This document shows positions 49,982 through 61,486 of a DNA stretch of 64,000 bases, piece by piece. Position 1 is the first letter of the stretch, and each line of letters opens with the position of its first letter. Under the pieces are notes generated by a model. That model was given only the letters and a program-made list of their open reading frames with translations. It was not told the origin of the DNA and did not search any database. Origin of the DNA: Pragia fontium DSM 5563 = ATCC 49100 (GTDB lineage: Bacteria; Pseudomonadota; Gammaproteobacteria; Enterobacterales; Enterobacteriaceae); contig NZ_FOLW01000008.1 in assembly GCF_900112475.1 (NCBI RefSeq), positions 146,535 to 210,534 on the forward strand, given 5' to 3'. The position numbers and the translations under genes are program-made.

Positions 49982-50243
49982 TGATATTATCTGCGTTATA
50001 ACCTAACACTGACTTATTACCAACATATATCAATAACATCCTGAGTTTAATTGGTTAACTTAATTAACATCGTACTCACCATTGATTCGTTTACTAATCA
50101 TACAGTTTGCATAAATTTAATACGCTTATCGATTACCTTTAGGATTAATATCAAATAGTGGTCTAATTTTGCTGTTAAAAGCACCCAAAAACTGATTTAC
50201 TTGAGTAACATTTGTAAAAACACCCGTTTAAGAAAGGACTCTG

Positions 50244-50888
50244 ATGACGCTCTTCTTACAAAACTGTTTATCTTACCCGGTCATTATTTTCAGTGGTTTG
50301 TTATTAATTGTCCTGTTTTATTGGGTCTGTGCCGCCTTTGGCCTGTTGGACATTGATATTCTCAACATTGACAGTCCGGATATGAATATTGACAGCCTTG
50401 ATGCCTCAGCCTTAGCGGGCTGGCTAACCAAGCTCGGCCTTGCCGGTATCCCCCTCACCGTTATTATTACCTTAGTGACGCTCATTGGCTGGCTACTCAG
50501 TTATTTTAGCGTACACCTGATGCTGCGCTGGATAGAGACTGACTTTATTCGCTACTTATTAGGCACAGCCGCTTTCCTACTGATTGCGTTTATCGCCCTC
50601 CTGCTGACTTCAATGTTATTGAAACCATTGCGACCGATACTGGCCAATCATAATAAATCTAAAAGCGTGACCGGACTTATTGGCAAAATCGCTGAAGTTC
50701 GCTCTTCCATTGTCACCCTTCAACGTGGTGAAGCACTGATGGAAGACGGCGGAGGTGGTTTAATCCTACAAATACGCGCCCCGGAAGATGCTGGTATTGT
50801 CAGAGGCGATCGCGTGGTATTAATCCGCTATGATGCGGCAACACATAGCTATGAAGTGGTGAGTGAAACCGAGTTTAATCGGCTATAA
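50244..50888 (+). CDS. YqiJ/NfeD-like inner-membrane protein: multiple TM helices plus a C-terminal OB-fold-like soluble domain. Partner of the flotillin gene
   Basis: 214 aa. Three or four hydrophobic helices, then …TGLIGKIAEVRSSIVTLQRGEALMEDGGGGLILQIRAPEDAGIVRGDRVVLIRYD…, a β-rich NfeD-type C-terminus. Lies immediately upstream of the SPFH gene. Confidence 0.6.
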   Translation: MTLFLQNCLSYPVIIFSGLLLIVLFYWVCAAFGLLDIDILNIDSPDMNIDSLDASALAGWLTKLGLAGIPLTVIITLVTLIGWLLSYFSVHLMLRWIETDFIRYLLGTAAFLLIAFIALLLTSMLLKPLRPILANHNKSKSVTGLIGKIAEVRSSIVTLQRGEALMEDGGGGLILQIRAPEDAGIVRGDRVVLIRYDAATHSYEVVSETEFNRL

Positions 50889-51012: not shown

Positions 51013-53196
51013 ATGGTCATGGCAGATATAATGCCGTTCTTAACCATTATTGCATCGGTCATCATTGTAATTTTGGGCCTTTTTGGATTGTTTAAAGCGT
51101 TTTATATCAAAGTACCACAAGGCACCGCCCTGATCGTCAACGATATGTCATCGCAACCTAAAGTCCATTTTACCGGTGCGTTGGTTTATCCGGTCATTTA
51201 CAAAAAAGAGTTTATGCGCATCTCTTTGCTGACGCTGGAAGTTGACCGTCGTAGTAAAGATGGCCTGATCTGTAAAGATAACCTGCGTGCTGACATCACC
51301 GTTGCCTTTTACCTACGCGTGAATGAAACCACCGAAGACGTGTTAAAAGTGGCCAAAAACATTGGCGTTGAACGCGCATCGGATCATCAGGCGGTTAGTG
51401 CCTTGTTTAGTGCTAAGTTCTCTGAAGCACTGAAAACGGTTGGTAAGCAATTTGAGCTGTACAAGCTGTTTGAAGATCGGCAGAACTTCCGCGATCGCAT
51501 CATCGATGTAATTGGTAAAGATCTGAACGGCTATGCGCTGGAAGATGTCGCGATTGACTACTTAGAGCAAACGCCAAAGAGCTCACTGGATCCGAATAAC
51601 ATCTTCGATTCCGAGGGTATCCGTAAGATCACCGAGATCACCGCGATTCATAATATCGAAACCAACCAGAAAGAGCGCGATCAGGAACTGGCGATTAAAA
51701 AGAAAAACGTGGAAACCCGCGAAGCCAGTCTGGCCCTGGAACGCCAACAGGCCGATGCTGAAGCACGTCAACAGCGTGAAATTGAAAGCATCAGAGCTCG
51801 TGAAGCTGCTGAAACACTGCGCGTTAAAGAAGAAGAACGCCTGAAAGCGGAACAAGCCCGAATTCAAACTCAGCAGGAAATCGAAATCCGCGAAGAAAAT
51901 CGCCTGCGTGAAGTTGAAGTTGCTCAGCAAAACCGTACTCGTGCAGTCACCATCGAAATCGAGAAAGTCACCCGGGCAAAAGATCTGGAAGTGGTTTCTC
52001 GTGAGCGTGAAGTAGAACTACAACGTATTGAAAAAGAAAAAGCGTTGGAAGAAGAGCGCAAAAACATTGCTAACGTTATTCGTGAACGCGTTGCGGTCGA
52101 AAAAACCGTTGCTCAGGAAGAAGAACGAATTAAAGAAGTACGCATGATATCTGACGCCGATCGCCAGAAACAAGTCACCATCATTCAAGCTCAGGCAGAA
52201 GCCGAGCAAGAGTTGGTGCGTCAGGTGAAGCAAGCCGAAGCCGATGAAAACAGTGCTAAACATAAAGCTCAGGAAATCAGCACCATGGCTCAGGCTGAGC
52301 TTGAGGCTGCCGCTAAACAATCCGAAGCCAAAAAACGCATGGCGGAAGGTATCGAGGCAGAGCAGGCCGCTCTGGGTCTGGCAGAAGCCCGAGTCCGTCA
52401 GGCTCAGGCCGAAGCGGAAGAAAAAGAAGGCTTAGTGCTGGCTAACGTCACCGCAGAGAAACTGCTAGCAGAAGCCCGCGGTTCTCAGGAAAAAGGCTTG
52501 GCCGAAGCGAGAGTGAAAGAAGCTCAGGCTGCTGCCGCAGAGAAACAAGGTCTGGCTGAAGCTAAAGTACTGGAAGAAAAACTCACTGCTCAAGCGCGCG
52601 GTGATGAACAACAAGCTCTGGCGAAAGAGAAACTGGGTCTGGTTGATGCCAAAGTATTGGAAGAAAAACTGGTAGCTCAGGCTCGCGGTGAAGGTCAGCT
52701 AGGTTCAGCCCAAGCGGAAGTTGTACGTCAGCGTCTTAAAGCTGAAGCGGATGGTTTAACCGATAAATTTACCGCTATGGGTAACCTGAATACCACGGCT
52801 CGCGAGCACGAAGAGTTCCGTATGCAGTTGGAAAAACACTTTGAGCAAAGCATGGCTTCTATCGCCGCCAATAAAGAAATTGCCAGAGAGCAAGCCGATG
52901 TTCTGGCGGCGGCACTCAGCAAAACCAACATCGATATTGTGGGTGGCGACGGCAGCTTCTTTAATACCTTCTCTAAAGCCCTTAGCGTTGGTAAAGCCAT
53001 TAATGGCGTAGTAGACAAGAGCCCACTGGTACAAGACGTTGTGCAGAAGCTGTTAACCAGCGATAAAGCGGGTCAGAAACTCGATCTGGACGCGTTATTA
53101 CAAAACCCGGAAGTTCAGGCGTTGATTCAGCAATTCACCGCTGCCAAAACGCTACCGGCTGCTGCACCAAAAAATAACTACGATTCACAAGAGTAA
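51013..53196 (+). CDS. Flotillin-like SPFH (band-7) domain protein with an extended EA-repeat coiled coil (YqiK/FloT-like)
   Basis: 727 aa. N-terminal TM anchor (FLTIIASVIIVILGLFGLF), SPFH core (…YIKVPQGTALIV…ISLLTLEVD…DNLRADITVAFYLRV…), then about 400 aa of E/A/K/Q-rich coiled coil. Confidence 0.8.
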   Translation: MVMADIMPFLTIIASVIIVILGLFGLFKAFYIKVPQGTALIVNDMSSQPKVHFTGALVYPVIYKKEFMRISLLTLEVDRRSKDGLICKDNLRADITVAFYLRVNETTEDVLKVAKNIGVERASDHQAVSALFSAKFSEALKTVGKQFELYKLFEDRQNFRDRIIDVIGKDLNGYALEDVAIDYLEQTPKSSLDPNNIFDSEGIRKITEITAIHNIETNQKERDQELAIKKKNVETREASLALERQQADAEARQQREIESIRAREAAETLRVKEEERLKAEQARIQTQQEIEIREENRLREVEVAQQNRTRAVTIEIEKVTRAKDLEVVSREREVELQRIEKEKALEEERKNIANVIRERVAVEKTVAQEEERIKEVRMISDADRQKQVTIIQAQAEAEQELVRQVKQAEADENSAKHKAQEISTMAQAELEAAAKQSEAKKRMAEGIEAEQAALGLAEARVRQAQAEAEEKEGLVLANVTAEKLLAEARGSQEKGLAEARVKEAQAAAAEKQGLAEAKVLEEKLTAQARGDEQQALAKEKLGLVDAKVLEEKLVAQARGEGQLGSAQAEVVRQRLKAEADGLTDKFTAMGNLNTTAREHEEFRMQLEKHFEQSMASIAANKEIAREQADVLAAALSKTNIDIVGGDGSFFNTFSKALSVGKAINGVVDKSPLVQDVVQKLLTSDKAGQKLDLDALLQNPEVQALIQQFTAAKTLPAAAPKNNYDSQE
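52366..52710 (+). repeat. In-frame tandem repeats of about 120 nt (40 aa) encoding alternating GLAEARV(K/R)xAQAxAAEK and GLxxAKVLEEKLxAQARGxxQ units inside the flotillin gene
   Basis: Near-identical nucleotide stretches, for example gctaaagtactggaagaaaaactcactgctcaagcgcgcggtga and gccaaagtattggaagaaaaactggtagctcaggctcgcggtga. EA repeats are a known flotillin feature. Confidence 0.6.
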
Positions 53197-53204
53197 TGAA
53201 TAAG

Positions 53205-53295
53205 CCAGACTACTGCGGTTCACCGCAGTAGTCTGGTCGCTTCATGGCATTAATTAAGATAAGCCTATTATTTCCATGGGCTTATCTTAGTTAAT
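53205..53295 (+). promoter_or_regulatory. Two long stem-loops in the 116-bp flotillin/giant-gene spacer: a 14-bp perfect stem at 53205-53236 and a 15-bp stem with one mismatch at 53251-53295
   Basis: ccagactactgcgg-ttca-ccgcagtagtctgg with no strong U-tract after it. taattaagataagcc-(13 nt)-ggcttatcttagtta ends 18 nt before the giant-gene ATG. Confidence 0.55.
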
Positions 53296-53312
53296 TTCTC
53301 CGTCAATACAGC

Positions 53313-56300
53313 ATGTCGCATGACCAGACAGGACGTTTGCGCCATGATACGGAACCCGAGTTAACGCTTATAAAGTCAACTTCGATCAAGGGAACGTTAA
53401 ACGCCATGTCAGATAGCCAAGTGAATAATCGCGAGCAAGAATTACTGGATAACGCCGTTGCTGAAGGCGGTGCCTATGATATTTTACGTAAGCGTTTATC
53501 TGAACAGGGTCAACAAATACACGACAAAGCGCACCAGCTAAACCAACGCCGTCTGGAAGAGTTTGGCAAAAGCCAGATGGATATCATTGGGCGTATGCGC
53601 ATCCGTACCGAAAATAACTGCGTCGCCCGGGATATTGTACGCGTTGGCGACTGGTTACTCTTCGGCTATAACGTTTTCATTGGACTCAAGAAAGAAACCC
53701 GCATTGAAGACGTATTTTCACTGTATCGACTAAAAGAAGAAAACGGTGAATATGATGTTGAGTCGGTTCCTTTAACCGGCACTTTCCTGAATATCACCAG
53801 CTTCGTTCAAGACTTTAATGAACTGTATACCTATTATAAAAACACCCAGTTACTGCAATTAGTTGAACGTGACGGCAAGCTGCTGGCCAGCTTTCAAATC
53901 GGTGAGCGCATTACCGATATTCGGGTGTTTCGCTGGTCCATTTCCAGTGATAAAACTGAAATAAAATATATTGATAACCGTGGTGAGCGAGATATCGCCC
54001 TGCCCCCGGCCTATGATTTTGAATGGCAAAAAACCACTCGCGAAAATGCGATTAACGGCCGCCATCCACACATGAACATTCTGGATACCGTCTTCGTTGA
54101 AACTATCGGTGGTGACCTGACCATCAAGTGTGAAAACAATACTGAAGATGGACTGGGAATTTACCGTGAGGCGGTGTTAGACAAAACCCAATCGCTGGAT
54201 GATGCACAGATTGAGTATGCCCAAACCGGTAGCCTGATTCTGCTAAAAATTCTGCCTTACCGAGAAGATACCTGGCGGTATCTGGTTTATAACACCATCA
54301 CTCAAACCGTACAGCGTATTGATGCGATTGGTTCTGCCTGTATTCAGCTTCCGGAAGATCACGGTATTATCTTCCCCGGTGGCTATTATCTACAAAGTGG
54401 TGAATACAAAACATTTGACCAGCCGATGGATGGAATGCGTTTCCGTCGTATTCGTCGATCGCCTAATGGCGAAGACGTGATGTATATTTTTTACGAACCC
54501 AATTTCGGTCGATTGGCGTTGTTTAACTACAACATGATTGAACGTAAATTGCAGAATCCGCTATTCGGCCATGGTTATGCCATGCTGGAAGATGGCCGTA
54601 TGGTTCTGTTTGAAGGTCAATCAGATGAGCCAACGCGTATTCACCCGATGCAGGTTTGGCAAACGCCATTCTATTCCGATGAATTTGCTGCGCTACAGCC
54701 GGCTAACAATAGCTTCTTTGGACGCATTGGCAACGCCGAGCTGGTACGCGGAATATCCGACCTCTACCATATTGCCAAAGAGATTGAACAGCAGCAGATA
54801 TCTTCACAGCTGTATGAAAAACTGTGCCAAGACGCTCGCCGACTGATCGATCTTTATTACTGGCTCAATGATGAACACAGCCTGAATGCCACTATTCTGC
54901 TGAAAGAAATCGCCAACACTGGCGAACTGGTACTGGATGAATACGAGAAAGTAGAAAGTATTCGTCGTCAGTCAACCAGAGCCATGAATGAGGCCACATC
55001 GCGTCAGAAACAGCTCTTGTCTCTGATGTTGCCTGACAGTTGGCATAACGCCCAGCAGTTTGTTGATGCGCTGAATGATCTCAGCGTGCAACGAGGTCAT
55101 CTGATTACCCTGCGCGACTACCGCTATATTGATTTGTCTCGTCTTGATGAGATGGAACAACAATTGGCTGAAAGTCAGGAACGCATCTCATTGGCTACGG
55201 CGGAGTTCCTTGCCAGCGAGCAAGCCCTGCAACCGTTCACCGATCAATTGCAGGCGTTAGATAAGCAAACTCAGGCCGCCGCCAACAGTTCACAACTGGT
55301 TGAGCCGATGGCCGGCATGGACAAGATGTCTGCTGATTTGGATATGCTCTCGAATTTGATGGCTTCACTAAAGTTCGAAGACACCACACAGCAAACCCAT
55401 ATCATCGAGGCGATTTCAGAAATCTATGCCCGCCTGAATCAGGCGCGAGCACGTTTACAGCAGCGCCGTAAAGAACAGAGTTCGGTGGAGTCTGTCGCCC
55501 AATTTGGCGCTCAATTTAAACTTTTCAGCCAGAGCATTACCAATGCGCTGACGCTGGCGACGGATCCTGAACGCTGTGACGAACAGCTCTCGCGTCTGCT
55601 GGTGCAGTTGGAAGAACTGGAAACCCAATTCAACGAACACGAAGAATTCCTCAATGACATTCTAAGCAAACGCGAAGAAATGCTGGAAACCTTCGAAACC
55701 CATAAGCAATCGCTACTGGATGAACGTCAACGCAAGTCACAGAATTTACAGGTTGCCGCTGAACGGCTGCTGGATAGCCTACAGCGCCGAACGGCCAAGT
55801 TCACTACTCTTGATGAGCTAAATGCGTTCTTTGCTTCCGACCCCCTGTCATTAAAAACCCGGGAAATTGTCGAGCGTTTACGCGCACTCAAAGACAGCGT
55901 TAAAGCTGACGATATTGATGCCAAATTTAAGGCTGCCCGCGATCAAGCGATTCGCAGCCTGCGCGATAAATCCGAAATATTTGAAGACGGTGGTAACGTA
56001 ATTAAACTGGGTCCGCGCCATCGTTTCAGTGTCAATACACAGGAACTGGATCTGACCATTTTGCCAAGAGGCGATCGACTATATCTGCACCTGACGGGTA
56101 CGGATTATCAAGAGCCTATTGATAGCCCTGAATTAGAAGCCCTGAAAGAGTACTGGCAAATATCGCTGGAGTCAGAATCGCCGGATATTTACCGGGCCGA
56201 GTATCTGGCCTACTCACTAATTTACGCCGCCAGCAAAGAATTGGATGGACTGAGCCTCGAGAACCTAAAAGCGCTGGTTAATAAACCAGAAGCGCTAGAA

Positions 56301-58343
56301 AAATTGGTCCGTGATTTTGCCTCACCACGCTATAAAGAAGGCTATGAGAAAGGCATCCACGATCACGATGCGGTAGCCATTTTACAGAAACTGATCCCCG
56401 TTAGGGAAAGTGCCGATCTGTTACGCTTTAATCCACATGCTCGCAGCATTGCCGTCCTTTTCTGGCAGCATGTTCATAGCCAAGAGTTACCCGCTCTTTG
56501 GCCAGAGCGAGCGCGTACCAGCATCAATATTCATCAGCTATTTCGTAACGATGCCGGTTTACTGGATCTTCAAGCTGAAATTGAAGCGGAACTCAGCCTA
56601 TTTCTTGAACAATACCCAATTGCCTGCCAGCCTTATCAACAATCACAGGCTGCTGAATACTTGAGCTTCGCATTAGGCCGAACACCGGTTGAATTCAGCT
56701 TTAGCAAATATGCTCGTACCCTGTCGGAAGGCTTACAGTCCCAGTTAGAAAAAGCCCATATGTGGGGCGACTTCAACCGCTCACAGCAGAATTTAGCCAA
56801 ACGCTGGTCACAACGTTGGTCATTGGCAGACAATTGGTTGCAAGGGCTTTGCTCTCTGCCAGAATATCAAAATCTAAAAAGCTATATTTCGGAAGCCATC
56901 GTCATCCTGCTGTTAGATAAAGGCATAAAGACCCGGTTTAGTGAAGTCGACTTGCACTTCACCGTGACAAACCTGATGGGTGAGCATCCTCTGATTCAAA
57001 ACCAATCCCTGACGCTTAGCCTGGATGATTATTTCAGCCGGATGCGTAAACAACGCAAGCAGTTCATTCCAGCCTACCATCGCTATCAGGAACTGCGTCA
57101 GGAAGTCTTAAGCCAGCAGAGAAATCAGCTGCGTCTGCATGAATTTAAGGCTCGCCCTCTCAGTTCATTCGTGCGTAATAAGCTGATCAATGACGTTTAT
57201 TTGCCGATCATCGGCGATAATCTAGCTAAACAAATTGGTGCGTTGGGTGAAGGAAAACGTACCGACCTGATGGGCTTACTATTAATGATCTCGCCGCCCG
57301 GCTACGGTAAAACCACACTGATGGAATATATCGCAAATCGCCTAGGCCTGATATTCATGAAGATTAATGGACCAGCCTTAGGTCACGATGTGTTGTCGCT
57401 GGATCCACAGCAAGCCCCGAATGCCACCGCCCGTCAGGAATTAGAGAAATTAAATCTGGCACTGGAAATGGGCAATAACGTTATGCTGTATGTCGATGAT
57501 ATCCAGCATACCAATGCCGAATTCCTGCAAAAATTCATCTCTCTTTGTGATGGTACCCGGCGAATTGAAGGGGTATGGAAAGGCAAGACCAAAACTTATG
57601 ATATGCGCGGGAAAAAATTCTGTGTCGTGATGGCGGGTAACCCTTATACCGAATCAGGCGAAGTGTTTAAAATTCCTGATATGCTGGCCAACCGCGCGGA
57701 TATTTATAATCTCGGCGAAGTTCTGGGTGGCATGGAAGAGGCATTTGCCCTGAGCTATATTGAAAACAGCTTAACCTCTAATCCGGTACTGGCACCGCTG
57801 GCACTGAGAAACATGAGCGATCTGTATTTATTTGTTGATAAAGCAATGGGTAAACCGTTCTCTAATAATGCGCTGAGCTATCAATACAGTGAAGCGGAGA
57901 TCGCCGAAATTGTTGCCATTCTTGAACGATTAATCACGCTGCGAGACGTGGTGTTAAAAGTGAATCAGCAATATATCGCCAGTGCTGCACAGTCAGATAA
58001 ATACCGTACTGAACCGAGCTTTAAGCTTCAGGGTAGCTATCGTAATATGAATAAACTGACGGAGAAAATTTCGGCGGTGATGAATCCGGCCGAAGTTCGC
58101 CGCATTCTTGACGATCACTATTTAGGTGAAGCTCAACTGCTAACCAGTGGCGCAGAAGAAAACTTATTAAAGCTGGCTGAAATCCGCAATATCATGTCAC
58201 CTCAGGAAGAGCAACGCTGGGGACTGATAAAGCGTGACTTTATGAAGAATAAAGCACTGGGCGGAGATAATGCGGAAGTTGGCGATCGCGTCGTAGCTCA
58301 ACTGGCCGATCTGGTAGAAAGTGTACAAGCCCTGAGGAATTGA
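53313..58343 (+). CDS. Giant (1676-aa) uncharacterised protein: N-terminal β-rich region, central coiled coil, and a C-terminal MoxR-class AAA+ ATPase module
   Basis: Single uninterrupted ORF. Walker A LLMISPPGYGKTTLMEY (about aa 1325-1335, nt about 57298-57318). Walker B MLYVDDIQH (nt about 57487-57510). Sensor-1-like VVMAGNP and arginine-finger-like LANRADIYNL, as in the MoxR/RavA family (ATxNP … LLDRF). The central region is heptad-rich (…LDEMEQQLAESQERISLATAEFLASEQALQPF…). The start codon is uncertain: 53313 or 53406. Confidence 0.6.
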   Translation: MSHDQTGRLRHDTEPELTLIKSTSIKGTLNAMSDSQVNNREQELLDNAVAEGGAYDILRKRLSEQGQQIHDKAHQLNQRRLEEFGKSQMDIIGRMRIRTENNCVARDIVRVGDWLLFGYNVFIGLKKETRIEDVFSLYRLKEENGEYDVESVPLTGTFLNITSFVQDFNELYTYYKNTQLLQLVERDGKLLASFQIGERITDIRVFRWSISSDKTEIKYIDNRGERDIALPPAYDFEWQKTTRENAINGRHPHMNILDTVFVETIGGDLTIKCENNTEDGLGIYREAVLDKTQSLDDAQIEYAQTGSLILLKILPYREDTWRYLVYNTITQTVQRIDAIGSACIQLPEDHGIIFPGGYYLQSGEYKTFDQPMDGMRFRRIRRSPNGEDVMYIFYEPNFGRLALFNYNMIERKLQNPLFGHGYAMLEDGRMVLFEGQSDEPTRIHPMQVWQTPFYSDEFAALQPANNSFFGRIGNAELVRGISDLYHIAKEIEQQQISSQLYEKLCQDARRLIDLYYWLNDEHSLNATILLKEIANTGELVLDEYEKVESIRRQSTRAMNEATSRQKQLLSLMLPDSWHNAQQFVDALNDLSVQRGHLITLRDYRYIDLSRLDEMEQQLAESQERISLATAEFLASEQALQPFTDQLQALDKQTQAAANSSQLVEPMAGMDKMSADLDMLSNLMASLKFEDTTQQTHIIEAISEIYARLNQARARLQQRRKEQSSVESVAQFGAQFKLFSQSITNALTLATDPERCDEQLSRLLVQLEELETQFNEHEEFLNDILSKREEMLETFETHKQSLLDERQRKSQNLQVAAERLLDSLQRRTAKFTTLDELNAFFASDPLSLKTREIVERLRALKDSVKADDIDAKFKAARDQAIRSLRDKSEIFEDGGNVIKLGPRHRFSVNTQELDLTILPRGDRLYLHLTGTDYQEPIDSPELEALKEYWQISLESESPDIYRAEYLAYSLIYAASKELDGLSLENLKALVNKPEALEKLVRDFASPRYKEGYEKGIHDHDAVAILQKLIPVRESADLLRFNPHARSIAVLFWQHVHSQELPALWPERARTSINIHQLFRNDAGLLDLQAEIEAELSLFLEQYPIACQPYQQSQAAEYLSFALGRTPVEFSFSKYARTLSEGLQSQLEKAHMWGDFNRSQQNLAKRWSQRWSLADNWLQGLCSLPEYQNLKSYISEAIVILLLDKGIKTRFSEVDLHFTVTNLMGEHPLIQNQSLTLSLDDYFSRMRKQRKQFIPAYHRYQELRQEVLSQQRNQLRLHEFKARPLSSFVRNKLINDVYLPIIGDNLAKQIGALGEGKRTDLMGLLLMISPPGYGKTTLMEYIANRLGLIFMKINGPALGHDVLSLDPQQAPNATARQELEKLNLALEMGNNVMLYVDDIQHTNAEFLQKFISLCDGTRRIEGVWKGKTKTYDMRGKKFCVVMAGNPYTESGEVFKIPDMLANRADIYNLGEVLGGMEEAFALSYIENSLTSNPVLAPLALRNMSDLYLFVDKAMGKPFSNNALSYQYSEAEIAEIVAILERLITLRDVVLKVNQQYIASAAQSDKYRTEPSFKLQGSYRNMNKLTEKISAVMNPAEVRRILDDHYLGEAQLLTSGAEENLLKLAEIRNIMSPQEEQRWGLIKRDFMKNKALGGDNAEVGDRVVAQLADLVESVQALRN

Positions 58344-58350
58344 TTGACCA

Positions 58351-58923
58351 GTGAAGCAGTGGATAAAACAGCGCATTAAACTACTTGGCATATTGGCGAT
58401 CGTCTTGATCGCCATTCAGTGCCTGAATACGCTGACTAGTGGTTATTTAAACCAGTTTGGTATACTTCCTCGTACCAGCCAAGGGTTAGTGGGTATTCTA
58501 TTTTCTCCTTTTCTACACGGTGACTGGGGACATCTGCTTAGCAATCTTCCGGTGCTATTAATTTTAAGCGGATTATTACTCAGCAATTCTATTCGCTACT
58601 ATATTTCAGCCAGTGTTTTTATCATTTTACTGGAGGGATTATTAGTCTGGCTATTTGCGCGTTCGGCTATTCATATTGGTGCCAGCGGCTGGATTTTTGG
58701 CTTATGGTCGCTATTGTTAATCAATGCCTTCACTCAGCGCAGAATACGAGATTTTATTTTGGCGCTGCTTATTTTAGTTTATTTTGGTGGCATGGCGTCA
58801 GGACTACTCCCCAGTGAACCAGGCATATCAACAGAAGGCCATATTGCAGGCGCCATTGCTGGAGGTGCGTTTGCTTTTATTAGTAGAAAATTCATGAGAA
58901 AAAAAAGTCACCACACCCCTTAA
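58351..58923 (+). CDS. Rhomboid-family intramembrane serine protease, minimal 6-TM core
   Basis: 190 aa with a GTG start 8 bp after the giant gene's stop. TM2 motif HGDWGHLLSNL (H-x4-H-x3-N). Catalytic GASGWIFG (GxSG) in TM4. Catalytic His in EGHIAGAIAGG in TM6. Confidence 0.75.
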   Translation: MKQWIKQRIKLLGILAIVLIAIQCLNTLTSGYLNQFGILPRTSQGLVGILFSPFLHGDWGHLLSNLPVLLILSGLLLSNSIRYYISASVFIILLEGLLVWLFARSAIHIGASGWIFGLWSLLLINAFTQRRIRDFILALLILVYFGGMASGLLPSEPGISTEGHIAGAIAGGAFAFISRKFMRKKSHHTP

Positions 58924-59237
58924 TTTATTATTTCCCTCATTCCCTTTCCTATTATCGCTAAAGATTTTTATATTAAAAATTACCAAAGAAATGATCACCT
59001 GTTAAAAAATTGAGTTAATACCATCAAAAAAATGAAAAAAAATCCACTCATGTCAATTTTTGAGATCAAACTCTTTATTTTATTATCCAATTATCGCAAA
59101 CTACGGTTATAAGGCTTAATTAAATAAAAGATAAAATAATAGCAATAAAATAACGTGATCCAGTTCAAAAATATTTGGAATATCGCGTAATGAAAATTAA
59201 ATCTACTTGATTATTGTTTTATGGATAGAAACAGGTA

Positions 59238-59921
59238 ATGGAAAATAAAGAACTGGAGTTATATCTGAAGAGTACGCTGGCTGATTTAACATTAAGCCAC
59301 AGTGAACGTACTCAGTTAAGAGAATTAAGCCAATCCTTAAGTACTGAACAATCCGGCTTTATGCGTAATCTTGCCTTTGATTTAGTCAGAGAACAGCTTG
59401 ATACCGCACCTCAAAACCTCCTGCCAGTATTAAAATGGTTAGAAACCGTCATAAAGACCTTCGATATTGCCAACCAACAGAAGCAAAGCCACTCTACCGC
59501 CTACTTCTCACCAGGAGAAACCTGTCGGGAAAAAATTCGATCAATGCTTTCTCAGGCGACGAAAAAAGTCGATATATGCGTTTTTACTATTGCCGATGAC
59601 GCTATCACCGAATCTATCCTCAGTGCCCACCAGCGCCAGGTTCAGATACGTATTATCACTGATAATGATAAATCAGAAGATCAGGGAAGTGATATTGATT
59701 ACCTGCAACATAAAGGGATCTCCATCGTTACCGATAATAGTCCTTATCATATGCACCATAAATTCGCTATTTTCGATGATACTTACCTGCTAAACGGCAG
59801 TTTTAACTGGACCAGAAGCGCATCGCTGCACAACTGCGAAAATATTCTGATCACCGATTCCACTGAACTTTTAACCCGTTATCAACAAGAGTTTATTAAG
59901 CTGTGGCAGAGGTTTAGTTGA
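59238..59921 (+). CDS. Phospholipase-D superfamily protein with a single HKD motif (Nuc / MitoPLD-like), cytoplasmic, with an N-terminal helical extension of about 100 aa
   Basis: 227 aa. HKD signature HHKFAIFDDTYLLNGSFNWTRSA (H-x-K-x4-D … GSxN). No signal peptide. An A-GG-TA SD precedes the ATG. Confidence 0.7.
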   Translation: MENKELELYLKSTLADLTLSHSERTQLRELSQSLSTEQSGFMRNLAFDLVREQLDTAPQNLLPVLKWLETVIKTFDIANQQKQSHSTAYFSPGETCREKIRSMLSQATKKVDICVFTIADDAITESILSAHQRQVQIRIITDNDKSEDQGSDIDYLQHKGISIVTDNSPYHMHHKFAIFDDTYLLNGSFNWTRSASLHNCENILITDSTELLTRYQQEFIKLWQRFS

Positions 59922-60114
59922 TGAATAATCTGCTGAAAATAAAGCAAATGGAGGTAAAAAAATCAAAGACCGCTTTTCAGTTTACCCCTCAAAAAAAGGT
60001 AGATATACTCCCTCAAAAAGGAAGTGTCACTCTACGCAATGATTGCATAAAGTTCCCTCGGTTTGATGTCCCTTTATGTAATATCGTGACTTTCTATAAA
60101 AATAACAGAAACAC

Positions 60115-61486
60115 TATGAATAATAATATAAAACGTATAACGCTTTGCTGTGGTATTGCTCTCGTTCTGGCGGCTTGTTCTAATCCACCATCTCGAAAGA
60201 ACTTTGACTACGAAATTTCTCAAGGAAATCTGGAAGTAGCACAAAAGATCGCACTAACTGAAGGCGTCACCGCTGAGACTGATGCAACCACCGAGCTATT
60301 ATGGTCGCTGGAAGCAGGTGCTCTGCTACGTATGACTAATCAGCTTGATCGTTCAACCAAAGTATTTGATGGTGCAGAAAACCTGATCAAAGATAACGAA
60401 ACTCAGAATTTAGCCGCATCCGGTTTCAGCCAAGCTGCATCCATGGTAGTTAACGACAACATTATGGATTACACCCCGCGAGTTTATGACCGCGTGATGG
60501 TGAATACCTATAAAGCCCTTAACTTTTGGCAGCAGTCTGATTTCGCTAATGCCCGAGTAGAATGGAACCGCGTCGATGACCGTCAACGCCGTGCCGCAGA
60601 GTATTTCTCCAAAGAAATTAATGCACAAAAAAATGAAGTAAAAAGTAATAAGCTTGGGGAAAGCTACTCTAAATCCATGGAAACGCTTGAAGGATCGGGT
60701 ATCGATGTTTCAAAATGGGCGCCCTATGATGGTTATATTAACCCGGCCTCACTCTATCTGCATGGTCTCTACTTCCTGATTAACAATGAAAGTGCCGCTG
60801 ATTTAAATAAAGCCAAAGAGAGCCTAAAACGCGCCTATGCATTGACCAGAAGCAAGCAAATTCGCGCTGACCTTAATTTAGCCAACAAAGGTCGTAGCGT
60901 AGCACCCGGGGTTTGGGTTATTTTTGAAAATGGAACCTCGTCTAAAAAAGTAGAACGCCGCGTCGATTTACCATTAATTTTAGTCACGAGTCGTGTAGCT
61001 TATGCCGGTATTGCTTTACCGACCCTTGAGTCAGGTAGCCCGGCGTTTTCTAATCTTTCAGTCAATGGAGGAGGCAAAACGGAATCCTTCGCCAACATGG
61101 ATAAAATTATCCAGGGTGAATTTAAAACGGAATTTACCGGTATCCTTATCAAGGAATTAGCCAGAGCGGTGCTAAAAACTGCAGCACAAGCTTCGATGAT
61201 GAATTCCGACAACAGTACCGTAAGGATACTCGGCGCTATCACCGGTATCGCTCAAGCGGTAACCACGCAGGCTGATATTCGTAGCTGGCATACGCTGCCT
61301 TACGATTTTCAGGTGACCTACGTGAAGTGGCCAAAAAGCGGTCAAGTGCAATTAAGTCCGTCGGGCGGAGCGCCAATAACTGTCGATTTACCGGCAACGC
61401 CTCAACCCGTTGTTGTTTATGTGCGTGCTCTGAATGCGAGTACCACACCGCAGGTTAACGTGTTAACCAGTAAGAATGCGATGTAG
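60115..61486 (+). CDS. Predicted lipoprotein (about 457 aa), unknown family. An alternative upstream start at 59921 overlaps the PLD-like stop as TGATG
   Basis: From 60115: MNNNIKRITLCCGIALVLAACSNPP is a textbook lipoprotein signal peptide with an LAAC lipobox. The reading frame stays open 65 codons further upstream to an ATG that overlaps the preceding stop and has a GAGG SD. See findings. Confidence 0.55.

Follow-up and report, generated by a model that had tools for sequence, protein, structure and literature searches.

A minimal rhomboid protease gene as a recurrent but optional member of BAC/Psp-type operons

What role might a minimal rhomboid protease play when its gene is embedded between those for a giant AAA+ protein and a phospholipase D (PLD)-family enzyme? 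This question is raised by a stretch of 64,000 nucleotides from the genome of Pragia fontium DSM 5563 = ATCC 49100 (contig NZ_FOLW01000008.1, positions 146,535 to 210,534), hereafter called the window, in which a rhomboid gene follows genes for a YqiJ-like membrane protein, a flotillin of the SPFH type and the AAA+ protein (Table 1). A preliminary inspection of the DNA letters, here termed the sequence-only reading, took these genes for an unrecognised island that echoes the mitochondrial pairing of the rhomboid PARL with the SPFH protein SLP2. We find instead that the cassette corresponds to a described type of operon, and comparisons among genomes indicate that operons of that family repeatedly, but not always, include the rhomboid as an extra member. 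With a probability of roughly 0.6, we favour the reading that the protein is an active protease that forms an optional and probably co-transcribed part of a membrane-stress module, where it would act with a flotillin/YqiJ scaffold and the AAA+ protein.

The rhomboid open reading frame (ORF) begins with GTG, as had been proposed, and the separation of 8 bp from the preceding stop that accompanied this proposal is correct when counted to the G of that codon. The spacer itself is 7 nucleotides long and follows the TGA at 58341-58343 that terminates the 1676-residue AAA+ ORF. An earlier start is ruled out because an in-frame TGA is located upstream of the GTG at 58345-58347, and the N-terminal sequence MKxW(I/L)KQR is common to the protein and its aligned homologues. 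The databases at NCBI already include a 190-residue Pragia fontium protein that is 100% identical over the full length and is named “rhomboid family intramembrane serine protease”. The gene is thus known by annotation, and it forms the fourth member of a tight block of four genes, with the PLD gene located 314 nucleotides beyond its stop codon. Site scans revealed no sigma54 site, sigma70-like promoter or terminator around the rhomboid gene.

The encoded protein matches the Pfam Rhomboid family (PF01694, MEROPS S54) with an E value of 3.4e-18 and a score of 66.7 bits (cut-off 22.6). The full catalytic apparatus reported by the sequence-only reading is present in the form of the motifs H56-x4-H61-x3-N65, G110-A-S112-G113 and H164-x2-G-x3-G, the last including G167 and G171. 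Loss of the catalytic serine or histidine was looked for in homologues and was encountered in none of them: residues S112, H164, H56, H61 and N65 are invariant in 43 homologues of 43-71% identity, and the catalytic residues are also invariant in 24 further metagenomic rhomboids whose identity falls to as low as 35%. Pairwise dN/dS values range from 0.08 to 0.15 in every lineage examined.

An AlphaFold model built on the alignment of 43 homologues (pLDDT 90.8, pTM 0.87) exhibits six membrane helices and no extra domain, which agrees with the earlier expectations of a six-helix topology and of a protein devoid of soluble domains. Residue S112 is located at the start of the helix spanning residues 112-128, and H164 resides within the helix spanning residues 161-186. 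Foldseek ranks E. coli GlpG structures as the top matches to this model, with TM-scores of 0.70-0.75 over approximately 176 columns, and a profile of the 43 homologues has H. influenzae GlpG as its sole sequence match in the PDB, in an alignment that pairs the catalytic motifs of both. Because 13 lysine and arginine residues are located on the N-terminus, the loops between helices 2 and 3 and between helices 4 and 5, and the C-terminus, compared with only two on loops L1, L3 and L5, both termini are predicted to be cytoplasmic and the active site is predicted to open toward the periplasm.

The protein and GlpG (from E. coli, or from H. influenzae in PDB entry 2NR9) therefore appear to share a six-helix core with the HxxxxHxxxN motif on the second helix, GxSG on the fourth, a histidine followed by GxxxG on the sixth, and both termini inside. 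The H. influenzae enzyme is equally minimal at 196 residues, whereas E. coli GlpG carries an extra cytoplasmic domain and has a different gene context. Regardless, sequence identity to GlpG is only 17-19%. The L1 loop of the Pragia protein is also much shorter and lacks the WR motif, which is common but not universal among rhomboids; a conserved P40-R41 pair is found there instead, such that the arginine is kept. The sequence HIGASGWIFGLW serves as a signature of the rhomboid subfamily to which the protein belongs, and the wider family of rhomboids of approximately 190 residues is large (1639 clusters at 50% identity and E<=1e-10). On the basis of these sequence and model features, we judge the ORF product to be a catalytically competent, and probably active, minimal six-helix rhomboid serine protease.

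The genes surrounding the rhomboid are orthologous to, and arranged in the same order as, bacC, bacD, bacE and bacF of Pseudomonas aeruginosa. Protein identities to the P. aeruginosa locus are 43% for the product of the bacC-position gene directly upstream of the flotillin gene, 73% for the flotillin BacD (PaFlo3), 68% for the product of the bacE-position gene directly downstream of the flotillin gene, and 50% for the bacF-position product. The P. aeruginosa bacABCDEF genes constitute the “biofilm-associated cluster” (BAC), which was found by reverse transcription PCR to be a single six-gene operon (PMC10948618; the cluster is also described in PMC2587700). Its products are a DUF2170 protein, PspA, a short NfeD protein, the flotillin PaFlo3, PA14_16190 and PA14_16200 (PMC10948618, PMC13086221), with the term short NfeD applied to the gene at the bacC position (PMC13086221), and the cluster has been proposed by its authors to be an unconventional Psp system (PMC10948618). 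A survey of the same operon type across bacteria describes an AAA+ protein with beta-propeller and coiled-coil regions, a YqiJ/YuaF partner, an HKD-motif PLD “in some Proteobacteria”, and abbreviated operons that lack PspA (Ravi 2024, PMC11237479). The phenotypes reported for this operon type concern envelope stress and biofilm formation, with PspA as a partner (PMC10948618, PMC11237479).

By gene content and order, the window cassette is a BAC/Psp-type membrane-stress operon of the abbreviated form that lacks PspA and is extended by the PLD gene. Thus, the giant protein and the PLD regarded earlier as parts of an unrecognised island are BacE and BacF of a described system. No match to PspA genes or to genes of the CesT/Tir-like DUF2170 family was obtained by tblastn anywhere in the 64-kb window; the gene upstream of the cassette is AmpD-like and resides on the opposite strand, and no sigma54-type site (TGGCAC-N5-TTGC with up to two mismatches) is present in the interval 49982-50243. 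The P. aeruginosa locus differs from that of Pragia by having upstream DUF2170 and PspA genes and a reported sigma54 site, by lacking a rhomboid, and by placing bacF 19 nucleotides after bacE.

Rhomboids are unmentioned in both papers devoted to this operon type (Wallart 2024, PMC10948618; Ravi 2024, PMC11237479), and the word has zero occurrences in the text of the latter survey, whose abbreviated operons with an added PLD correspond to the arrangement in the window. Likewise, no paper linking a bacterial rhomboid to an SPFH protein was found in the literature searched. The rhomboid family, the annotation of this protein and the operon family are already known, and what appears not to have been described before is that a rhomboid recurs in this operon family, at positions that vary.

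Two scans reveal how often and where the rhomboid resides in the operon. A genome scan led by the rhomboid retained 80 species-level loci, 77 of which have enough upstream sequence to be judged, and a metagenome scan led by the AAA+ gene yielded 64 loci with at least 1.5 kb of downstream sequence. The rhomboid directly follows the AAA+ gene at 32 of the 77 loci, including those of Limnobaculum, Budvicia, Leminorella, Providencia, Moellerella, some Xenorhabdus and many Cellvibrionaceae. At seven loci, all from Xenorhabdus, the AAA+ gene is located upstream but an insertion of 0.7-3.8 kb precedes the rhomboid, and at four more the neighbour of the rhomboid is an incomplete AAA+ gene or a short remnant of one. 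The other 34 loci have no cassette in the available upstream flank of approximately 7-10 kb.

The proposed coupling of the rhomboid to the AAA+ gene is borne out by the conservation of short gaps, which measure 3-42 nucleotides in Budviciaceae, Providencia and Moellerella and only a few nucleotides in Cellvibrionaceae. An apparent gap of 360-480 nucleotides in the last family is due to a longer AAA+ C-terminus, with the rhomboid starting just past the true stop codon, and this explanation eliminated a small substrate ORF that had been considered as an occupant of the gap. The order in Cellvibrionaceae is bacA-bacB-bacC-bacD-bacE-rhomboid-bacF, and most of these loci have only 12-71 nucleotides between the rhomboid and PLD genes. 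The segment bacE-rhomboid-bacF is found in Budviciaceae, Cellvibrionaceae and Pseudomonas-like metagenome loci, and the rhomboid follows bacE without a PLD gene in Providencia, Moellerella and Xenorhabdus. Among the 64 metagenome loci, 21 carry a rhomboid and 18 carry a PLD, with both present at 15, the rhomboid without the PLD at 6, the PLD without the rhomboid at 3 and neither at 40. This co-occurrence corresponds to a Fisher p value of 2e-7, which is not corrected for phylogeny.

The rhomboid also occupies a second position in the same operon type, which makes a chance neighbourhood hard to uphold. Two of the 21 rhomboid-bearing metagenome loci place the gene between pspA and the yqiJ-like gene with overlapping stop and start codons, and a third locus with this arrangement stands outside the count because its downstream sequence is too short. 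In this distant clade, the AAA+ protein is approximately 55% identical and the rhomboid 35-37% identical to the window proteins, and all catalytic residues are kept. Pairwise identities of the rhomboid and AAA+ proteins correlate with r = 0.91 over 59 loci, a value to which shared phylogeny contributes and which fits a long co-inheritance of the two genes.

Some individual loci exhibit further peculiarities. The order in the distant clade (L139 931-11558, L166 1758-11629 and L141) is DUF2170, PspA, an ORF of 106 residues, rhomboid, YqiJ-like protein, flotillin and AAA+ protein, with a PHA_gran_rgn gene of 92 residues overlapping the AAA+ stop codon and with no PLD gene. A Cellvibrionaceae metagenome-assembled genome (L072 6548-8199) retains only a PspA fragment, the rhomboid and the PLD; the last two, 12 nucleotides apart, have persisted longer here than the other operon genes. 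A contig labelled Phytomonospora, an actinomycete (L038), encodes AAA+ and rhomboid proteins 75% and 56% identical to those of the window, as in Morganellaceae loci, and this contig is probably an assembly contamination.

Given this context, a mechanism can be proposed for the reading that the rhomboid serves within a membrane-stress module. Whenever the operon is expressed, the rhomboid and the AAA+ protein BacE would be translated from a shared mRNA, and the rhomboid would work in or beside a patch of membrane that the flotillin/YqiJ scaffold organises. At this site it might clip membrane-spanning proteins whose N-terminus is outside and whose C-terminus is inside (N-out/C-in). Candidate targets would be damaged or orphan proteins that gather in this patch, or else the anchors at the N-termini of BacD or BacC; the BacD anchor has the N-out/C-in orientation that is cut by a periplasm-facing rhomboid. 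The cytoplasmic BacE motor could then handle the released or destabilised cytoplasmic portions. Such a division of labour would resemble those proposed for PARL-SLP2-YME1L, for RHBDL4-erlin-p97 and for YqgP-FtsH of Bacillus subtilis.

Several observations weigh against this reading, and most involve rhomboids that lack the operon or operons that lack the rhomboid. The 34 loci without a cassette include all sampled Photorhabdus, Proteus and Morganella. In Photorhabdus, the AAA+ gene is apparently absent, as it appears neither among the AAA+ homologues nor in the Xenorhabdus AAA+ clusters, and the rhomboid is kept under purifying selection with a dN/dS of 0.15. Limnobaculum eriocheiris and Budvicia diplopodorum have lost the cassette by deletion, down to an AAA+ stub of 40-75 residues, with the rhomboid left intact. 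Conversely, Proteus mirabilis and Morganella carry a three-gene cassette elsewhere in the genome without the rhomboid, and approximately two thirds of the sampled operons, including those of P. aeruginosa and Gilliamella, have no rhomboid. The N-terminal membrane segments of BacC and BacD are alike in operons with and without the protease. Moreover, we infer co-transcription of the rhomboid with the AAA+ gene in Pragia from gene spacing only. Because intact orthologues persist where the cassette does not, the rhomboid must have some value of its own and at least one substrate outside the cassette.

The loci just mentioned also provide a view of how the cassette comes apart. At the two deletion loci (L006 9871-10573 and L008 9826-10570), the C-terminal AAA+ stub lies beside AmpD, the yqiJ-like and flotillin genes are gone, and a degraded PLD gene is left in the second. 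In Proteus and Providencia rustigianii, the gene directly ahead of the rhomboid encodes a 303-residue protein; its homologue in Moellerella precedes the cassette, which gives the impression that the three cassette genes were excised from between the two. The Xenorhabdus insertions between the AAA+ and rhomboid genes (L010, L015, L017, L020, L028, L033 and L042, and also L024 and L025) are accompanied in several cases by fragmented AAA+ genes, such as a fragment of 710 residues in X. szentirmaii, and in this genus the cassette appears to be in decay, with the rhomboid kept intact. No recurrent neighbour was evident at the distant solitary rhomboids, where GroEL, ECF sigma and GGDEF genes were among the neighbours seen. 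One solitary rhomboid in an Oceanicoccus metagenome-assembled genome (L080 3557-7174) follows genes for a YfbK-like VWA protein, an ECF sigma factor and a 229-residue protein, a context that hints at a role in anti-sigma processing at that locus.

Of the alternatives, the one that survives best is that the rhomboid is an independent housekeeping protease, engaged in quality control like that attributed to GlpG, that merely travels with the cassette. We consider this unlikely, although it deserves to be kept in mind. The solitary orthologues of Photorhabdus, Proteus and Morganella, intact and under purifying selection, are in keeping with an independent role, as are the outliving of the cassette by the rhomboid in two Budviciaceae species, the Xenorhabdus insertions of up to 3.8 kb that part the AAA+ and rhomboid genes along with cassette decay in some species, and the large size of the wider short-rhomboid family. 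However, a mere traveller is difficult to reconcile with a gene that in two bacterial orders is enclosed in the operon, flanked by bacE and bacF at distances that range from a few nucleotides to a few tens, and that in a distant clade holds a different place in the operon. Furthermore, the solitary copies have no other recurrent neighbour, and the rhomboid and AAA+ genes have diverged together.

A second alternative, to which we assign a rather low likelihood, is that the maturation or regulation of one cassette component is the dedicated task of the rhomboid, which would trim the N-out anchor of BacD or BacC and thereby control the assembly or release of the scaffold. The enzyme would then replace the ClpP-type protease domain found in long NfeD proteins, and the NfeD-like partner in the window is indeed the short form without a protease domain. 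There is precedent in the Pyrococcus proteins PH1510 and PH1511, for which cleavage of the stomatin partner by NfeD is mentioned in a passage of PMC13086221. Both cases place a protease gene beside SPFH and NfeD-type partners, with the difference that the ClpP-class protease domain of the long NfeD proteins is soluble and forms part of the NfeD chain, whereas the protease of the window is an intramembrane rhomboid. The single helix of BacD runs N-out/C-in and carries small residues toward its outer end, and the first helix of BacC contains an invariant proline, Pro12. Regardless, the membrane segments of both proteins are equally conserved in the rhomboid-less operons of P. aeruginosa, Gilliamella and Proteus, and hence they exhibit no signature of a dedicated substrate. 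The suggestion of the sequence-only reading that the flotillin or the NfeD-like protein is a natural substrate accordingly loses ground, as a comparison of N-terminal segments provided no sequence signal that marks either protein. Solitary rhomboids in cassette-less genomes would also require another substrate.

It is very unlikely, in our estimation, that the module as a whole serves in conflict or anti-phage defence, with the PLD as a nuclease effector and the rhomboid as a relay of a membrane-damage signal by regulated intramembrane proteolysis. This possibility is brought to mind by the PLD, which is closest to the PLD nuclease domains of NucT, DrmC, DpdK and Mokosh, by its co-occurrence with the rhomboid, and by a patchy distribution that suggests horizontal transfer (PMC13086221; locus scans). 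None of the four other cassette proteins matches PADLOC, and because this resource matched the PLD only, no defence system can be assigned. In addition, the published phenotypes concern envelope stress and biofilm formation with PspA as a partner, and the operon encodes no anti-sigma or transcription factor that could serve as the substrate. Finally, there is next to no chance that we are dealing with a rhombosortase-type enzyme or with a pseudoprotease devoid of activity, as the weak match of the protein to NCBIfam TIGR03902 reaches 30.3 bits against a cut-off of 84 and every catalytic residue is invariant in the 43 and 24 homologues described above, and we have rejected both identities at the level of sequence.

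The reading in which the rhomboid acts with the flotillin scaffold and the AAA+ protein gains interest from eukaryotic organelles. The mitochondrial assembly PARL-SLP2-YME1L and the RHBDL4-erlin1/2-p97 assembly of the endoplasmic reticulum each unite a rhomboid, an SPFH protein and an AAA+ protein (PMC9437926), which are the same three kinds of component that are encoded in the window operon. The parallel with SLP2 and PARL drawn by the sequence-only reading is therefore a fair analogy, and a better one once the AAA+ protein is included, but the components do not form a PARL and stomatin pair. PARL has one plus six helices, with the extra helix at the N-terminus, in contrast to the six helices predicted for the 190-residue window protein, which is of the GlpG type. 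The SPFH partners differ in subfamily as well: SLP2 and the erlins fall outside that of the window flotillin, which is of the YqiK type, has a cytoplasmic domain and is not a stomatin-like protein. YME1L is itself a protease and p97 is a segregase, and BacE is an unrelated protein with beta-propeller and AAA+ regions. The eukaryotic assemblies are protein complexes demonstrated biochemically, whereas the window module is an operon. We regard the likeness as one of function rather than homology, and common descent is not claimed. A bacterial comparison is offered by B. subtilis YqgP (GluP), a rhomboid that cooperates with the AAA+ machine FtsH in membrane-protein quality control (PMC7231995). 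Unlike the window rhomboid, YqgP has large extra domains and shares no operon with FtsH or a flotillin.

A function is known for only a few bacterial rhomboids, namely AarA in the processing of TatA, GlpG and YqgP in quality control, and rhombosortase. Passages in recent papers on bacterial rhomboids call the functions of these proteins largely elusive or sparsely known. A position in an operon with a flotillin, an NfeD-type partner, an AAA+ protein and often PspA provides this subfamily with a testable context, namely the envelope-stress response. The BAC/Psp-type system in turn gains a protease, and the arrangement supplies a genetically linked bacterial case of the combination of rhomboid, SPFH and AAA+ components, which until now has been seen only in complexes of eukaryotic organelles. 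A bolder and doubtful extension is that bacteria hard-wire a rhomboid, an SPFH scaffold and an AAA+ motor, with or without a PLD that cleaves lipids or nucleic acids, in one operon in which the flotillin/YqiJ cage confines the rhomboid and the AAA+ protein processes its products. If this were true, the module would be a prokaryotic functional counterpart of PARL-SLP2-YME1L and RHBDL4-erlin-p97, and it would offer a tractable model for the repeated pairing of rhomboids with SPFH cages. The arrangement is relevant to the rhomboid, SPFH and Psp fields because it makes function testable, with its weight limited by the many solitary orthologues.

Table 1. Coordinates of the rhomboid gene and its neighbouring features in the window.
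Feature	Position	Strand	Basis
BacC-like membrane protein of the YqiJ/short-NfeD type, 214 residues; 3-4 hydrophobic segments and a small C-terminal beta domain	50244..50888	+	hydropathy, profile comparison
BacD-like flotillin, 727 residues; membrane helix at residues 9-27, SPFH domain, long coiled coil	51013..53196	+	Pfam, BLASTP
Spacer between flotillin and AAA+ genes with two strong hairpins	53197..53312	+	RNA fold, terminator scan
BacE-like giant ATPase, 1676 residues; DUF3686 (beta-propeller region), DUF7902, coiled coil, C-terminal AAA+	53313..58343	+	Pfam
Predicted minimal rhomboid intramembrane serine protease, 190 residues; dyad S112/H164	58351..58923	+	Pfam, AlphaFold, Foldseek, homologue alignments
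AT-rich spacer between rhomboid and PLD genes, 314 nucleotides	58924..59237	.	promoter/terminator scan, Rfam, fold
BacF-like PLD, 227 residues, cytoplasmic; single HKD motif (Nuc/NucT-like), N-terminal helical region	59238..59921	+	Pfam, translation

The remaining features of the cassette (Table 1) were assigned as follows. A profile of 15 orthologues of the BacC-like protein aligns with E. coli YqiJ by hhalign (probability 73%, E = 3e-5), and with moderate confidence we consider the protein to be YqiJ/short-NfeD-like. It has no match in Pfam and no sequence match in the PDB even when a profile is used, and a single-sequence AlphaFold model was unusable (pLDDT 57.6). The SPFH protein noted two genes upstream of the rhomboid is confirmed by residues 1-230 of the BacD-like protein, which alone match Pfam Band_7/SPFH (E = 4.5e-7, 30.5 bits, cut-off 23.6), and by 30% identity to the E. 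coli flotillin YqiK over 444 residues (BLASTP, E = 1e-48); its homologues carry the names flotillin family protein or YqiK. The full-length protein of 727 residues yields no relevant match in Pfam, NCBIfam or PDB sequence searches, probably because the long coiled coil suppresses the score. Similarly, PF01145 is found only on clipped fragments among its database homologues.

The spacer between the flotillin and AAA+ genes has a predicted RNA folding energy of -55.9 kcal/mol, compared with -21.7 for shuffled sequences (z = -10.5). The first of its stems was also flagged by the terminator scan, and neither hairpin is followed by a U-tract. These hairpins could function as an intercistronic stabiliser or an attenuator that sets the ratio of flotillin to AAA+ and rhomboid proteins.

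The BacE-like protein matches Pfam DUF3686 (E = 5e-206), DUF7902 and AAA, with no protease domain among the matches and no membrane segment by hydropathy. Its NCBI homologue is 1645 residues long, and its start probably corresponds to M32 (53406). This homologue is called a ‘DNA repair ATPase’, a name that seems to derive from the Pfam description and is probably misleading because every conserved neighbour is a membrane-stress component. No mention of DUF3686 was found in the literature searched.

The PLD-family enzyme noted downstream of the rhomboid was likewise verified by a match to Pfam PLDc_2 (E = 3e-30). The protein has no membrane segment, and its NCBIfam matches are NucT/DrmC/DpdK-like and below their cut-offs. 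The spacer that precedes its gene measures 276-315 nucleotides in Budviciaceae, which contrasts with the short spacing of most Cellvibrionaceae (528 nucleotides in one locus), and within 58924-59237 we observed no terminator-like or sigma70-like site, no Rfam match and no significant fold. Two blocks in this spacer are conserved in Budviciaceae: CTTTATTTT..GATTA..CGCAAACTA near 59087-59123, and TTTTATGGAT near 59218-59227, just ahead of the PLD start.

The sequence-only reading did not recognise the optional status of the rhomboid in the operon. Beyond the PLD gene, an ORF of 522 residues at 59918-61486 probably starts at M66 (MNNNIKRITLCCGIALVLAACS, a lipoprotein signal). Together with LpoB, it is part of the chromosomal backbone that stays in place when the cassette is deleted.

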